Position numbers and translations under genes: made by a program
The notes under the pieces: model-generated
Told to the model about the DNA's origin: nothing
Database searches by the model: none
The model's input: the letters and a program-made list of their open reading frames with translations, nothing else
In this document: positions 5 to 15,558 of the stretch, one piece after another
How positions within the stretch are numbered: the stretch's first letter is position 1
Layout of the letters: each line of letters begins with the position of its first letter
Assembly (NCBI GenBank): GCA_038826135.1
Contig: JAWBON010000009.1
Location: forward strand, 829 to 28,594
Source of the DNA: Candidatus Odinarchaeota archaeon
GTDB taxonomy: Archaea; Asgardarchaeota; Odinarchaeia; Odinarchaeales; Odinarchaeaceae
Direction: 5' to 3'
Length of the DNA: 27,766 nucleotides

Positions 5-1147
5 GTGATGAAGCATAAAAAGGAATCAGTTGATGCGATTAACGGTTCTAGGATAGGGGAAATTGTCACCGCTGATAAAAATAAGTTAGGGGCGCTTCCG
101 GCTGTTAAAAAAATAGTTCTTAAACCTGTAGGTTATCCTCTGAGAACCGTTGATGAAGGTAAATCACCTGAAATCACAACAGACGACGTTGAATTATTTA
201 GCGCTTATGCAGTTGATCAATGGAACGGAACCTTGGTTAAAAAGAATAGTTTTCTCTTCGACCAGTATATTTACCCGGACTTCGCGTTTAAAGTTGTTCA
301 ATGCGCACCTAAAGAGGGTCATATAACTTATAAAACAAAGATTCTGATTGATATAAATGTTAGAGCGCCCTCTGTTAGTGGAATTAAAATAAGAGCTGAT
401 GATATTATCGGTCAGAATAAAGCTAAAGAGAAGTGTCTTATTATAAAAAAATATTTGCTTGAACCAGCTAAGTTCGGAGAGTGGGCTCCAAAAAACGTGC
501 TTTTCTACGGTCCACCTGGTACAGGTAAGACGATGATGGCTTTAGCTCTTGCAAACGAGACTAAAGCATCTATATTTCTCTCGAAGGCTACGGATCTGAT
601 AGGTTCTCATGTAGGGGGAGGAGCTCGCAGAATACATCAACTTTACGAAAACGCTGTAAGCCAAGCCCCGTCAATAGTTTTTATAGATGAGCTTGACGCT
701 ATCGGTTTAGACCGGCGGTTCCAATCTATTAGGGGGGATGTCTCCGAGATAGTTAATGCTCTATTATCCGAGTTAGACGGTCTTAACCCGAATTTAGGGG
801 TTGTAACAATCGGTGCTACTAACGCACCTGAAATACTAGACCCTGCTCTTAGAAGCAGATTCGAAGATGAAATTGAATTCACTCTCCCTAACAGAGAGGA
901 GAGGATTAGACTAATAGAATCCTATGCCAGCCGGCTGCCTTATGTGATAGAGATTGAGGCTGATAAGATAGCTGATATGCTGGAAGGTTTTTCAGGTAGA
1001 GATATAAAGGATAAATTTCTTAAAGCTCTTCTCCATAAAGCTATAGTTCAAAACCGCACTGTTATAGATTCTAAGATGGTTATGGATCATTTGAATACTT
1101 TAGTAGCTTTTAAAAACGATAAGAAAGCAAGGCAGTTGTATATGTGA
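5..1147 (+). CDS. AAA+ ATPase, AMA / COG1223-type, with C-terminal HbYX motif
   Basis: N-domain GYPL motif (KPVGYPLR), Walker A GPPGTGKT, Walker B FIDELD, SRH ATNAPEILDPALRSRF, single AAA module, ends QLYM*. The start is GTG at 5 or ATG at 8, and upstream context lies outside the window. Confidence 0.85.
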   Translation: MMKHKKESVDAINGSRIGEIVTADKNKLGALPAVKKIVLKPVGYPLRTVDEGKSPEITTDDVELFSAYAVDQWNGTLVKKNSFLFDQYIYPDFAFKVVQCAPKEGHITYKTKILIDINVRAPSVSGIKIRADDIIGQNKAKEKCLIIKKYLLEPAKFGEWAPKNVLFYGPPGTGKTMMALALANETKASIFLSKATDLIGSHVGGGARRIHQLYENAVSQAPSIVFIDELDAIGLDRRFQSIRGDVSEIVNALLSELDGLNPNLGVVTIGATNAPEILDPALRSRFEDEIEFTLPNREERIRLIESYASRLPYVIEIEADKIADMLEGFSGRDIKDKFLKALLHKAIVQNRTVIDSKMVMDHLNTLVAFKNDKKARQLYM

Positions 1148-1162
1148 TTTGGAGGTGGCTTT

Positions 1163-1726
1163 ACGGTTAAACTTATCGGTTTAACAGGGATGCCTGGTTC
1201 AGGTAAGAATGCGGCTCATAAAGTAGCTCAAGAATTAGGTATACCTGTAATATCCATGGGTGACATAGTCAGAGCAGAGGCTGAAAGGCTTGGTTTACCT
1301 TTAACATGTGAAGTTTTAGGCGGGGTAGCTCTTTGTTTAAGAGCTGAAGGTCAGGATGCTATCGCAAAAAGAGCTCAAAGACAGATAGCTAGGCTGATGA
1401 AATTAAAACCACCGCCGCGGATAATATTAATAGACGGGATAAGAAGCATTGAAGAGTGGAAATATTTTAGGCGCGTACATAAATACATTACTCTTGTTAG
1501 CATCGTATCATCTCCGAGAACAAGGTTTGAAAGACTTGTTAAACGTAAAAGATCCGACGACTATGATAACTGGTCTTCTTTTGAAAACAGGGATTTAAGA
1601 GAGATACTTTTAGGTATAGGCGGTGTGATAGCGTTAGCTGATTACACTGTTGTAAACGAGTCTTCACTTGAAGATTTAATGAATAATCTGCGCAACGTTT
1701 TTAAAAAAATAATTAGTGAAGCTTGA
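1163..1726 (+). CDS. CoaE-like P-loop nucleotide kinase (UPF0200-type); substrate uncertain
   Basis: KLIGLTGMPGSGK P-loop, SMGDIVR, IDGIRS, RLVKRKRSDD and ENRDLRE motifs. The ORF-track ATG (1190) lies inside the P-loop. The open frame extends upstream to a stop at 1145-1147, and SD GGAGGTG (1151-1157) points to ACG at 1163. Confidence 0.75.
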   Translation, partial: TVKLIGLTGMPGSGKNAAHKVAQELGIPVISMGDIVRAEAERLGLPLTCEVLGGVALCLRAEGQDAIAKRAQRQIARLMKLKPPPRIILIDGIRSIEEWKYFRRVHKYITLVSIVSSPRTRFERLVKRKRSDDYDNWSSFENRDLREILLGIGGVIALADYTVVNESSLEDLMNNLRNVFKKIISEA

Positions 1727-1739
1727 AGGTGGGTGATAT

Positions 1740-2183
1740 ACGGTTAAAATAGAGGTGAGGACTAGATTAAATCCCACTGAGAATAAGGATAGAGTATACG
1801 ATGCGATAGGTAACGTCATAGATCTTAAAGCTGATGTTATAGATCTTTCAAATGACGACTTTCTAACTTTCACATCTAGTAATATTAACTCTATTAAACC
1901 TCTTTTCGAAAAGTTAAGGGAGCAGAAGATACTGGAAGCCGCGCGTTCTCTGCTTCTAAGTGTTAAAACCCCTGATTTTATAATGTTTCACGTAAATAAG
2001 CAGGCGGCTTATGCTAATAAAATACATTTATGCGCGGAGGCCGGGGAGTCTCCGCTTGGACCTATAACAGTAGTTGTCTACAGTAAAAATATTGAAAAAT
2101 TCATAGACTGGCTTACCCCTCCTACATTTAAAGGACGGCCGGTCAGTCTTGGTAGGGAACAATTATCTTTAGAAGATCTTTAG
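1740..2183 (+). CDS. UPF0201-family putative RNA-binding protein
   Basis: VKIEV..LNPTENKDRV, LREQKILEAAR, FHVNKQAAYANKI, ESPLGPI and WLTP match the archaeal UPF0201 pattern. The first canonical start is GTG 1755, but the conserved-looking strand begins at ACG 1740 behind GGTGAT. Confidence 0.8.
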   Translation, partial: TVKIEVRTRLNPTENKDRVYDAIGNVIDLKADVIDLSNDDFLTFTSSNINSIKPLFEKLREQKILEAARSLLLSVKTPDFIMFHVNKQAAYANKIHLCAEAGESPLGPITVVVYSKNIEKFIDWLTPPTFKGRPVSLGREQLSLEDL

Positions 2184-4086: not shown

Positions 4087-4962
4087 TTAAACTCCTCTGA
4101 ACTGTTCCGCGATCAGAGGAGCTACTGAAACCACGCTAATTTCAGATGGAATAGTATCTGTCCCGATAATATCCGCCGCTCCAGCGGATAGTATTTTAGA
4201 CTTAGCTTCACCGATTAGAATAGTATGCGTGGCGGCAACATATACGTTATTACCGCCCTGACTCTTTATCATCTGAATAGCTTTAATCATAGTTCCGCCC
4301 GTGCTTATAATATCATCAACAATTACCGCGTCACGGTCTTTAACGTTAAGCTTCTTATAATCCATTGTAATCTCCCCCGTATCCTTATCCCTGAACTTGT
4401 CGAAGCTTACGTATTCTGAACCTAATACTTTAGCAACAGTTTCAGCGCGGTGGATCGCACCGTCGTCGGGGGCTATTATCAAAGGCTTGCTTAAATTTCT
4501 CTTCTTAAAGTATTCACCGAAAAGACGCATTGCGCTTAAGTCTTTAGCTTTAATCTTAAGGTAATCTAAGACTCTCGGTTCATGTAAGTCAATCGTGTAT
4601 AATTCATCAACCCCTAAATATTCTAAAATATTTTCTATAACTTTAATGCTTAGAGGCTCGCCTTTTTTAAACTGTTTATCCTGTCTAGCATAAGCGAAAT
4701 ATGGTATAACCAGTCTTAATCTCGCTGGATTCATCTGTTTCACGGCATCTATTAAAAGAAATAATTGTATCAGATTCTTGTCTTGAGGACTGTACGTTGA
4801 CTGTATTAGGAGAACATCCTTGTTGTTCAACTCGCCTTCAACTCTAACATATGTTTCCCCGTCGGGGAAGTCTTTGAAGTTTACGTTAACCACTTCGCTC
4901 TTTAGAAGCCGTGCTACTTTTACACCGAGTATTTGAGATGCAGGCCCGGGTACAATTATCAT
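4087..4962 (-). CDS. prs: Ribose-phosphate pyrophosphokinase
   Basis: FPDGETYVR, PYFAYARQD, DLHE, IAPDDGA, PRPP-binding VDDIISTGGTM. SD GAGGTG lies 5 nt before the ATG. Confidence 0.96.
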   Translation of the reverse strand: MIIVPGPASQILGVKVARLLKSEVVNVNFKDFPDGETYVRVEGELNNKDVLLIQSTYSPQDKNLIQLFLLIDAVKQMNPARLRLVIPYFAYARQDKQFKKGEPLSIKVIENILEYLGVDELYTIDLHEPRVLDYLKIKAKDLSAMRLFGEYFKKRNLSKPLIIAPDDGAIHRAETVAKVLGSEYVSFDKFRDKDTGEITMDYKKLNVKDRDAVIVDDIISTGGTMIKAIQMIKSQGGNNVYVAATHTILIGEAKSKILSAGAADIIGTDTIPSEISVVSVAPLIAEQFRGV

Positions 4963-5221
4963 AAATCCACCTCATAAACTCCTTAATTAACAAACTATTT
5001 ACCTTATTTTAACTTTTAACTGTGAAATTAACACGGCTTAAATATTTAAATCATTTCCAAATCAGTTTAGCTTCATCAATCAAGCGCCTTACAACAGTTA
5101 TTTCCTCTCCTTCAAACTTTAATAAACCCCGGTGAAAGCTGTAAGAGCATAGTATGATTCATCATTAATTATTAATATAAGACGTTACTTAACATAATAA
5201 TCATAGCTACTGGTGGTTTAA

Positions 5222-12118: not shown

Positions 12119-13273
12119 CTAGTATTCGTTTTCTTTAAAAACTTTCGCAGCGGCTTTGACGGCTGTTCTCCTCTTTACGCTTAAGCCCTTAATTATTAAA
12201 CTATCCTCTAAAGCGTTTAATGTGGTTTTCACCTGCTGCTGGTTAATGTTTCCAATAGTCCCGATTCTTATAATCTTTCCTTTAGTTGGGCCTATCCCAC
12301 CTGATATCGCGATCCCGTACTTTTCTAATAAATGCTTTTTAATATCACTATCTGTAATATTAGGTGGCAGATGGAATGCGTTCACAGTAATTGACGCGTA
12401 GTCTTCACTTTTAGGGAAGAGTCGGAATCCTATGGCTTTAGCCCCCTCTCTTAAAGCTTTTGAACATATCCTATGCCTTAAAACTCTTCTCTCAATACCC
12501 TCCTCTGATATTATTTTCAAAGCTTTTTTCAACGCGAAGAACAATGATACGGCTGGCGTGAACGGTGTCTCGTTTTTCTCATGGAATTTTCTAATTTTCT
12601 CAAGATCCCAGTAATAATTTATATGAGGCTTGCTACTCTCAACTTTCCTCCAAGCGTTATCGTTTAATGTTATAAAAGCTAGCCCGGGAGGGCATGCTAT
12701 GCACTTCTGGCTTCCTGAAACAACTATGTCAAAACCCCATTTATCAGTGTACAGTTCATCGCCGCCTAGGTTACTTATAGCATCACATAAAACCATTACA
12801 CCGCACTGTTTCCCCACCCTCGCTAGCTCTTTAGCATTATTCCTGACACCTGTAGATGTTTCATTATATACGAATGCTAATATTGAGGTGTCTGGGTTTT
12901 TTTCAAGTGTTTCTTTAACGATATCAGGGTTCGCGCATTCACCCCATTCAGCTGGTATTCTAACCACTTTCGCCCCGTAGACTTCAAAGATATCGGCAAG
13001 TCTGATCCCGAATTCACCGTTAACAGGCACAGCCACCACGTCATCTTTCTTAACTAAATTGCTAGCAGCGCATTCAACAGCCCCTGTTCCAGATGATGTG
13101 AGTATATATACCGGGTTTTTTGTTTGAAATAAATATTTTAAACCCTCCTGTAGCTCTTCATAGAGGAGGTGGAACTCTCCCCCTCTATGATTTATCATTT
13201 TTCTAGCTTCCTCCACTCTAATCTCATCCGGTACATTTGTCGGGCCTGGTAGCATTAATAAATCTTCATTCAT
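12119..13273 (-). CDS. Class V PLP-dependent aminotransferase (alanine/serine-glyoxylate type)
   Basis: MLPGPTNVP, SSGTGAVE, NETSTG, DAIS, SGSQK (PLP lysine intact), CPPGL, PFTP, IRIGTIG. Confidence 0.9.
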   Translation of the reverse strand: MNEDLLMLPGPTNVPDEIRVEEARKMINHRGGEFHLLYEELQEGLKYLFQTKNPVYILTSSGTGAVECAASNLVKKDDVVAVPVNGEFGIRLADIFEVYGAKVVRIPAEWGECANPDIVKETLEKNPDTSILAFVYNETSTGVRNNAKELARVGKQCGVMVLCDAISNLGGDELYTDKWGFDIVVSGSQKCIACPPGLAFITLNDNAWRKVESSKPHINYYWDLEKIRKFHEKNETPFTPAVSLFFALKKALKIISEEGIERRVLRHRICSKALREGAKAIGFRLFPKSEDYASITVNAFHLPPNITDSDIKKHLLEKYGIAISGGIGPTKGKIIRIGTIGNINQQQVKTTLNALEDSLIIKGLSVKRRTAVKAAAKVFKENEY

Positions 13274-13338
13274 ATATGAATCCCCTCTTCAACTATCTCC
13301 GAATCTTAACTAAACATGTTGATAAGCTTTTCTTCTAT

Positions 13339-15558
13339 TTAATCCCGGTAATTCTCTAAATTCTGTTGACTGTCACTATCCCCCTCCTCCAGTCTTCTCC
13401 AGGTTTCACGGTTTAAAACCCCCCCGATTTGTTCTATTATCTTTTTAGCAACCCCCGTTCCTATTGACGGTATGCAAATAAGATCGTTTAAACTTGCTTT
13501 TTTAAGCGCTACAATACTTTTGTAACCTGCATTGAACAGGATTCTCGCTCTCACCCGGCCTATTCCTTTTAACTGGGTTAATTCCATAACCTCTTCTTTA
13601 ACCCCTTTGCTTATCCTCTTTTCTAGAACCGCCAGCTTTGTTAGGAGTCCATCATATTTGAAGAGTTTCGATATCTCATAGCAGGCGTGGATAAGCCATT
13701 CACCAAGCTCCACCATTCTCTGCAGGTCACCGGCGCCTATATCATATTTCTCCTCTAATTTATCCTCAGGCTCCTCGTTTATCCAGTCATTGATCAAGGA
13801 AGCTGTTTTAAGCTCTGATAGAAAGAACTCGTATGCATATATATTCTCCCACCTGTCCGGTATATCCACTAGTACTTCATCTTTAACTGTATTTGCTAAT
13901 AGCTCTAAATCATCATAATCTCTTTTTCTAAGATATAGAGGCTCCATATCTGGTGTGTGGGCTATTAAATGTAGGAAGCTGAATTCCGTGATATTCTTAT
14001 TATTTGATGCGAATAACGCGTCTTTTATTATTTCACCTGTTTTAGGGTCTATGTATAGCTCCGAGACTTTTTTACCAAACGGTGTTGCTTTAAAAACCCC
14101 CTCCTTGGAGATTACCATCTCCTCTTCTACAAGGTAATCTATAATTTTCTGAACCACGCTGGTGATAACCTCGTACCTGTATTGTTGAGCATAGAATGTT
14201 TCTTTTAAGAAATCTATTAGTTCATCGTAGGTTTCTGTGAATTTTGTAGCTATAGATGATAGTATATGCGTTCTCAGAGCGGGCTCTGACGCTAGTTTCG
14301 ACCATATTCTCTCAGGCTCCCCGAATACGTAGTTTGTCATTAGAAAATCGAATTCACGTTTATCACCTGATATAAGGATAGCTTCACCTATCACATCGTA
14401 TTTAGGTCTGCCCGCCCTCCCCGCCATCTGTTTTATTTCTAGAACTGAAATCGGCATGTAACCTAAACCCGCATCGTATCTTCTGTAATCTTTGATTATA
14501 ACTCGGCGGGCTGGCATGTTTAATCCCGCGGAGAGTGTTGGTGTGGCGGTAACAACTTTTATTAAATTATTTTTAAACCCTTCTTCAACTATACGCCGGT
14601 ATTCATACGGTAACCCTGCGTTATGGAATGCTACTCCTCTTCTAATAGTTTCAGCCAGGGTTCTGCCTAAATTTGTCTGTTCTCTAGAGTTTAAAATCCT
14701 CTCAGCCACCCGTTCCAGAACCTTCCTCTCATTCCTCTTCAGCAAAGATTCTATAGCTTTACTGATTTTTCTGGATAAGCTGACGGTTGATTTACGTGTG
14801 TTAGTGAAGATTAACACTTGACCGTTTTCATTCACGGTCTCTACGGTTAAATCTAATAAGCTGTCTTCATATACATTGTTTAAACTCTTACATTCACCTG
14901 TATTGAACGTGATCGTATCGTAGAGTAAGACTCCCTCTTTAAGTTTTACAGGTCTCCAATCACTTTCAACAAGTCTTGCATTAAGCCAGTTTGCTATTTC
15001 ATTCGAGTTACTGATTGTAGCGCTTAAACCCAGTATTTTAGCTTGAGGCGCGACTCTTCGCAGTTTCGCTATAATAATCTCTAATGTAACTCCTCGTGAA
15101 GCATCGTTAATTATATGGATTTCATCAACCACGATTATAGATATTTCTCTAAGCCAGTTGACGTTGTGTCTTATCAGCGAATCCATTTTTTCATTCGTCA
15201 TTATGATTATATCATATCGAGCTAGATACGGATCCGCTGTGTCAAGATCTCCTGATGTTAGTGCCACTTTGAACCCGAGATTGTTATATTTCTTGAAGTC
15301 CTCGTATTTTTCAGACGCTAAAGCTCTTAAAGGTAGTAAGTAAACCGCTTTACCGCCTTTTCTCATCAATGTGTCGATAATGCAAATCTCGGCTACGAGC
15401 GTTTTACCTGAAGCGGTCGGACATGCTAAAACCAGGTTTCCTTCAGCTAACGCGCCTGTTTTAAAAGCTTGTTCCTGAGTAGGGTACAGTTCACTGTAGC
15501 CTTCTTTTTTTAAAAGATCTATGAGCCTGCTATTAACATCCAACTCATCTATTAATAT
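13339..15558 (-). CDS. hel308: Hel308/Hjm Ski2-like DNA helicase
   Basis: Q-motif LYPTQ, PTASGKT, DEIH, SAT, QMAGRAGRP, HhH GIGRVRAR. The first canonical start is TTG 15543; SD GAGGTG and family N-terminus suggest ATA at 15558. Confidence 0.93.
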   Translation of the reverse strand: MLIDELDVNSRLIDLLKKEGYSELYPTQEQAFKTGALAEGNLVLACPTASGKTLVAEICIIDTLMRKGGKAVYLLPLRALASEKYEDFKKYNNLGFKVALTSGDLDTADPYLARYDIIIMTNEKMDSLIRHNVNWLREISIIVVDEIHIINDASRGVTLEIIIAKLRRVAPQAKILGLSATISNSNEIANWLNARLVESDWRPVKLKEGVLLYDTITFNTGECKSLNNVYEDSLLDLTVETVNENGQVLIFTNTRKSTVSLSRKISKAIESLLKRNERKVLERVAERILNSREQTNLGRTLAETIRRGVAFHNAGLPYEYRRIVEEGFKNNLIKVVTATPTLSAGLNMPARRVIIKDYRRYDAGLGYMPISVLEIKQMAGRAGRPKYDVIGEAILISGDKREFDFLMTNYVFGEPERIWSKLASEPALRTHILSSIATKFTETYDELIDFLKETFYAQQYRYEVITSVVQKIIDYLVEEEMVISKEGVFKATPFGKKVSELYIDPKTGEIIKDALFASNNKNITEFSFLHLIAHTPDMEPLYLRKRDYDDLELLANTVKDEVLVDIPDRWENIYAYEFFLSELKTASLINDWINEEPEDKLEEKYDIGAGDLQRMVELGEWLIHACYEISKLFKYDGLLTKLAVLEKRISKGVKEEVMELTQLKGIGRVRARILFNAGYKSIVALKKASLNDLICIPSIGTGVAKKIIEQIGGVLNRETWRRLEEGDSDSQQNLENYRD

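Follow-up and report, generated by a model that had tools for sequence, protein, structure and literature searches.

Where does translation of a small P-loop kinase gene begin when its reading frame offers no canonical start codon ahead of the P-loop? The question is raised by a 27,766-nucleotide stretch of DNA from Candidatus Odinarchaeota archaeon (contig JAWBON010000009.1, positions 829 to 28,594), referred to throughout as the window (G000:C9:829-28594), whose host, a hot-spring Asgard archaeon of the genus Odinarchaeum, is represented by a metagenome-assembled genome (MAG) with a length of 1.26 Mb, 105 contigs and 38% GC. The first-pass annotation of this DNA had proposed initiation at an ACG codon at position 1163, and that proposal is supported by an orthologous start column in which ATG and ACG alternate, by the alignment of residue 1 with solved homologues and by a genome-wide enrichment of ACG at start sites. 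Judged from these comparisons, translation of the kinase in all likelihood starts at ACG 1163. On this reading, Odinarchaeum makes regular though infrequent use of ACG as a start codon, beside CTG, ATA and ATT, and ACG swaps with ATG, GTG and TTG between species. In window coordinates the kinase locus contains the following elements:

5 to 1147, plus strand: upstream gene, taken from the list of open reading frames (ORFs), encoding a PRS2-type AAA+ ATPase (Pfam PRS2_N, AAA and AAA_lid_PRS2_C).
1151 to 1157, plus strand: Shine-Dalgarno (SD) sequence GGAGGTG, which matches the anti-SD over 7 nt and lies 5 nt 5' of the ACG.
1163 to 1165, plus strand: ACG, the proposed kinase initiation codon, aligned with ATG in three congeners and with ACG in a fourth; the C at 1164 is kept in sequencing runs X2, X5 and X6.
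1163 to 1726, plus strand: kinase coding sequence, 187 codons plus the stop TGA at 1724-1726, for a UPF0200 / SSO1041-like, AdkA-related P-loop kinase.
1175 to 1177, plus strand: ATC, the apparent start in the public gene call of the contig (as deduced from the length and first residues of protein P0003), 17 nt from the SD and cutting strand beta-1.
1190 to 1192, plus strand: ATG, the first canonical in-frame start, whose Met lies inside the Walker A motif GMPGSGK; implausible as a start.

The stop codon of the PRS2-type ATPase, TGA at 1145-1147, is in frame with the kinase, and the codons after it read TTT GGA GGT GGC TTT ACG GTT AAA CTT ATC GGT TTA ACA GGG, followed by ATG CCT GGT TCA GGT AAG. 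None of the 14 codons from TTT to GGG is ATG, GTG or TTG, just as had been claimed for the interval between the stop and ATG 1190. The SD is also found where it had been placed, 5 nt before the ACG, and its spacing equals that of prs, the ribose-phosphate pyrophosphokinase gene (4087-4962, minus strand), which carries GAGGTG, 5 nt and ATG at 4960-4973. The 3' end of the 16S rRNA of the genus gives the SD as AGGAGGTGATCC. Two further whole genomes, the closed 1,418,269-bp chromosome G002 (its protein labelled Candidatus Odinarchaeum yellowstonii) and the Odinarchaeia MAG G001, were compared with the host genome of the window, G000, and yield about 1,050 ortholog triples. At 409 conserved canonical starts (ATG 254, TTG 99 and GTG 56) the aligned SD spacing is mostly 5-8 nt, and an SD of at least 7 nt precedes only 10 of them. 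With SDs of this length so rare, and with spacings peaking at 5-8 nt, the SD-to-ACG arrangement at the kinase is more than chance. TTG is the second commonest start in this set (99/409, 24%), ahead of GTG (14%).

Homology places the N-terminus of the kinase at the same point. Pfam models AAA_17, AAA_18 and AAA_33 and several NCBIfam kinase models begin aligning at profile positions 1-3, on the K, L or I of VKLIGLTG, and a phmmer search against the PDB returns 3LW7 (E 1.7e-23) and 3H0K (E 4.2e-23), with query residues 2-183 on chain residues 1-177. Chain residue 1 of these structures (IKVILITGMPGSGKS) aligns with the codon directly after ACG 1163. Counted from that codon, VKLIGLTGMPGSGK provides the N-terminal beta-strand and then the Walker A motif G-x-P-G-S/A-G-K. 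Both the profile and the PDB alignments need this strand, which bears out the earlier argument that VKLIGLTG must precede the P-loop and that ATG 1190 falls inside it.

From the same comparisons the gene product is assigned to the UPF0200 family as an SSO1041-like P-loop kinase, its kinase activity being predicted. The alignment with SSO1041 of Saccharolobus solfataricus (PDB 3H0K, 3LW7; AdkA-like) is full-length (E 1e-23), and in it both proteins show the N-terminal beta-strand, GMPGSGK as the Walker A motif and, on the C-terminal side, RSDD and GIG, although the Odinarchaeal kinase is only about 40% similar to SSO1041. Homologues of the kinase are stand-alone proteins of 180-195 aa. The public names of its relatives are automatic and mutually inconsistent: relatives among P0004, P0084 and P0101 go by 'flagellar hook-basal body complex protein FliE' in NCBI records and by 'dephospho-CoA kinase' in JGI records, and 'AAA family ATPase' occurs too. 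The FliE and dephospho-CoA kinase names look like automatic misnomers for the UPF0200 family kinase.

The orthologous loci extend the comparison to five Odinarchaeum species, the remaining two being the Odinarchaeia MAG G003 and a species known from one Logan contig (L177). The kinase start column holds ACG in two of the five species and ATG in three:

G000 (the window): ACG, preceded by GGAGGTG and 5 nt.
G001: ACG, preceded by GAGGTG and 6 nt.
G002: ATG.
G003: ATG.
Fifth species (L177): ATG, with AAGGTGG upstream.

By our own reading of these sequences, SD lengths are 7 and 6 nt in the ACG species and none, none and 5 nt in the ATG species. GTT AAA follows the start column in all five, and the codon after it varies synonymously among CTT, TTA and CTA; because it changes only in this way, the stretch after the ACG is translated. 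Distant Asgard relatives have an ATG, TTG or GTG 6-10 codons 5' of the GxPGSGK motif, and none of the relatives starts at the Met of MPGSGK. GTT 1166, which had been listed as a less likely start, gains no support: it is two positions off AUG, and GTT is not enriched in the codon screens described below.

These alignments bear directly on the possibility that translation begins downstream, at ATC 1175 or ATG 1190, the codons ahead of it being an untranslated leader. The start codons of NCBI table 11 are TTG, CTG, ATT, ATC, ATA, ATG and GTG; ATC is thereby allowed, and ACG is not among them. The public protein P0003 (183 aa) begins MGLTGMPGSGK, and ATG 1190 is the first canonical codon. However, ATC and ATG lie 17 nt and 32 nt from the SD, compared with a calibrated spacing of 4-9 nt, and a start at either would remove part or all of strand beta-1, a strand that the solved homologue has from its first residue and that all relatives share. 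Between ACG and ATC the encoded residues are preserved while the codons differ synonymously, and in three species ATG stands exactly at the ACG column. A downstream start is unlikely in our estimation.

A start-loss mutation or an assembly error, leaving the gene dead or misassembled, could also be suspected, given that the window comes from a MAG of 105 contigs and that the closest relative, G003, has ATG. Against this, independent hot-spring contigs keep the identical C at 1164 and show ordinary strain differences elsewhere; they derive from run X2 of another sample and from runs X5 and X6 of two further studies, all compared as assembled contigs, and they show that the C is not a base-call error, which the first-pass annotation had already held to be less likely. 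ACG is present in G001 as well, at a dS of 1.27 from G000, and the perfect SD is retained. Relative to its four orthologues the kinase has a dN/dS of 0.07-0.08 at dS values of 1.1-2.5; this is strong purifying selection, and the ACG is therefore not a recent knockout. Essential genes in the closed genome show the same pattern. Start loss or misassembly is most improbable.

The frame shared by the ATPase and the kinase suggests a further route, in which the kinase is made as a PRS2 ATPase fusion by readthrough of the in-frame TGA at 1145. The two genes share a frame in G000, G001 and G002, but the intervening stop varies between species (TGA, TAG, TAA) and the PRS2 and kinase frames differ in G003 and the fifth species. 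Since stop codons and frames are this variable, a readthrough fusion is effectively excluded. A strong SD lies between the stop and the ACG, and the homologues stand alone. We rate readthrough as a very remote prospect.

ACG starts occur genome-wide and genus-wide and are repeated in the very next gene, which goes beyond what the first-pass annotation had claimed. In genes whose homology continues 5' of the first canonical start, ACG accounts for 9 of 94 SD-preceded in-frame codons upstream of that start, compared with a background of 0.57% (17-fold, binomial p 4e-9), and in the same set CTG is enriched 6.6-fold and ATA 2.9-fold. All 61 sense codons were also screened in the three genomes for N-terminal columns that hold the codon in question or a canonical start in every genome, with an SD of at least 5 nt at spacing 4-8 in the genomes bearing that codon and no SD-equipped canonical start 5' of it. 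ACG comes first with 11 columns, followed by CTG (7), ATA (6), AAA (3) and ATT (2); no further codon exceeds 2, and ACA, ACT and ACC, which are synonymous Thr codons and commoner than ACG, score 0. The codons ACG, CUG, AUA and AUU are each a single-mismatch near-cognate of AUG.

Conservation at these sites is of the codon, not of the amino acid. ATG or TTG occurs beside ACG in seven of the 11 ACG columns, and the partners of ACG at start columns are always ACG or a start codon. Internal ACG codons align with ACT or ACA in 48%, with ACG in 11.8% and with ATG in 1.4% of cases, and only 3.2% of internal ACGs are retained in both other genomes. ACG thus very probably works as a start codon in Odinarchaeum, serving the kinase, the UPF0201 gene behind it and at least twelve further genes, essential ones among them.

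The UPF0201 gene lies immediately downstream of the kinase:

1726 to 1737, plus strand: SD region of the UPF0201 gene, directly after the kinase stop, with AAGGTG and GGTGAT overlapping; the SD is 6 nt long at an aligned spacing of 4.
1740 to 2183, plus strand: UPF0201 gene (Pfam RNA_binding PF01877), starting with ACG at 1740-1742, one codon past an in-frame TGA.

It opens with ACG GTT AAA, identical to the kinase start. The NCBIfam NF001687 profile matches from 3-138 on residues 3-137, counted from codon 1737, and the first canonical codon, GTG 1755, falls within the profile match. The start column is ACG in G000, G001, G002 and G003; the fifth species has GTG there, and other Asgard families have ATG. 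The G001 gene is without any canonical codon nearby. On the other side of the kinase, a run of 10 N at C9 819-828, just 5' of window position 1, sits in the SD/start region of the PRS2 ATPase gene, and for this reason the start of that gene cannot be judged.

Further genes of the genus with ACG at the start column include:

aspS: ACG in four species, with a stop codon directly 5' in two; NF003483 profile 3-438 on residues 2-430.
Proteasome alpha: ACG in G001, G002 and G003, CTG in G000 and GTG in the sister family; NF003075 profile 5-238 on residues 5-237.
mfnB: ACG in G001 and G002, ATG in G000; NF002573 profile 2-234 on residues 2-234.
uvrC: ACG in G000, with GTG one codon downstream in G001 and G002.

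Other near-cognates are represented as well. CTG start columns are found on G000 contigs C18(-), C42(+) and C46(-) and at G002 988465; the C18(-) gene, which is HisH-like, reads CTG GTT AAA in all three genomes, and two other CTG-column genes have CTG in G000 and TTG or ATG in other species. ATA or ATT columns kept in all three genomes lie at G000 C47(-)503, C10(+)14276, C39(-)955, C25(+)3086 and C1(-)14109, with the next canonical codon 15-100 codons downstream. Within the window, a Hel308-like helicase gene at 13339-15558 on the minus strand (DEAD, Helicase_C and archaeal helicase domain 4) has AGAGGTGG, 6 nt and then ATA at 15556-15558 (minus strand); the ATA is kept in all three genomes, five codons 5' of the first TTG, and is the probable start of this gene. 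A 2-isopropylmalate/homocitrate synthase-like ORF, G000 C4(-) 12459-14001 in strand coordinates, extends for more than 100 codons without a canonical start and shows no convincing SD-preceded near-cognate.

The range of codons involved is informative with respect to C-to-U RNA editing, which would convert ACG to AUG (and CUG to UUG) in the mRNA, as in plant organelles, and leave initiation itself canonical. The two most enriched codons, ACG and CTG, would indeed both become canonical starts in this way. Editing would not, however, repair the ATA and ATT columns that are conserved in all three genomes, so near-cognate initiation would be needed in any case. It would also have to single out more than 15 specific sites within a genome of 1.3-1.4 Mb. 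Only one ordinary CDA-fold gene is present per genome; a search of four genomes for DYW_deaminase gave no match, but the control genomes were silent too and the result is uninformative. The X6 contig, from a library labelled metatranscriptomic and flagged as probably DNA, keeps the C at 1164, which is weak evidence on the point. We know of no mRNA editing in archaea, and regard editing as quite unlikely here.

Initiation at the kinase ACG by near-cognate decoding is likely overall. Beyond what is observed, namely the position of the start, its SD, the orthologous ATG/ACG swap, the codon-level conservation and the genome-wide enrichment, the steps may be envisaged as follows. The 7-nt SD would pair with the 3' end of the 16S rRNA and set the ACG in the P site, where the ordinary initiator Met-tRNA (presumed anticodon CAU) would accept it as a near-cognate with a mismatch at the middle position. 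Met would be inserted, the predicted product being M-VKLIGLTGMPGSGK..., and initiation would presumably be weaker than at ATG.

Two refinements of this scheme were considered and set aside. Compensation of a weaker codon by a stronger SD fits the kinase, but an unbiased test on mixed columns lends it no support (mean 3.6 versus 3.5 nt, p 0.45, n small). Dependence of ACG starts on coupling to an upstream gene is not indicated either: four of the nine ACG sites examined have a conserved ORF upstream at a distance of 32 nt or less, compared with 31% of canonical genes, which is no clear difference given an incomplete ORF list.

Several points weigh against ACG initiation by this mechanism. At the kinase locus, the SD of G001 contains an in-frame GTG, a possible alternative start, and the public gene call for the window contig apparently begins at ATC 1175. 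In the genome-wide screen, the mapping of orthologous columns allowed no gaps, and the SD was part of the basis on which candidate sites were picked. The initiator tRNA gene was not located in G000 or G002 with ARAGORN (introns allowed), Rfam RF00005 and three regex scans. Initiation from ACG in E. coli reaches no more than about 0.1-1% of the AUG level (10.1101/063800); because initiation there is so weak, an essential gene with an ACG start needs either more tolerant machinery or very low demand. Finally, Odinarchaeum organisms are uncultured, and the ACG start rests on sequence comparison.

As to the tRNAs, only about 30-32 are detected per genome by ARAGORN and Rfam, many of them with long introns, and none with a CAU anticodon (initiator, elongator Met or Ile2) is among them. 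The A1:U72 tRNAs detected are tRNA-Gln only, and tRNA-Thr(CGU) resembles an ordinary elongator. The initiator tRNA was probably missed owing to multiple or unusual introns.

Start sites of this kind have parallels in several known systems, and differ from each. In near-cognate initiation with Met-tRNAi in eukaryotes and their viruses, ACG and CUG are likewise the most used non-canonical codons and stand at the orthologous AUG position. Two reviews describe the core initiation machinery of archaea and eukaryotes as homologous (PMC6412873, PMC7531240). In Odinarchaeum, however, the codon appears to be chosen by an SD, not by scanning or Kozak context, and ACG is the only start of ordinary, even essential genes, whereas in eukaryotes such codons start alternative isoforms or upstream ORFs. 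Rare starts in bacteria are similarly SD-directed, with a strong SD and a one-mismatch codon, the AUU start of infC being an example. All 64 codons have been measured as starts in E. coli, and the ACG-started product carries an N-terminal Met (10.1101/063800). ACG is not a natural start in that organism, whereas among the non-canonical starts of Odinarchaeum it comes first, and different species have it in common. Plant-organelle C-to-U editing presents the same picture of a genomic ACG where an initiator Met is expected, but Odinarchaeum also has ATA and ATT starts, which are beyond the reach of editing.

Reviews give AUG, GUG and UUG as the accepted archaeal start codons (PMC7531240). Ribosome profiling of Haloferax found about 30% putative near-cognate sites, which were discarded as possible false positives (PMC7261190), and in our literature searches no description of an ACG start in archaea, Odinarchaeum included, was found. 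What is new here is the probable near-cognate initiation as the sole, species-conserved start of archaeal genes, in a genus of Asgard archaea for which a closed reference genome exists, and with an all-codon control. A practical consequence is that standard gene finders cannot call ACG, and in public records the affected genes are cut short, lengthened or given another start. Public lengths of the kinase are 183 aa for the window contig (apparently from ATC), 178 aa for a G003-like record (from the P-loop Met) and 191 aa for G001 (from the GTG inside the SD).

On balance, we consider it probable that Odinarchaeum has a relaxed, eukaryote-like start rule, under which ACG, CUG, AUA and AUU are genuine primary starts for about 2-3% of conserved genes, including the essential aspS and proteasome alpha genes, and interchange freely with AUG, GUG and UUG over evolution, probably at low translation rates. 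If this is true, the archaeal start set of AUG, GUG and UUG and all current gene callers are incomplete, and the archaeal aIF1/aIF1A/aIF2 machinery would tolerate the near-cognates that eukaryotic ribosomes prefer. The genus would then bear on the evolution of start-codon stringency, for which its genes supply concrete test sequences.

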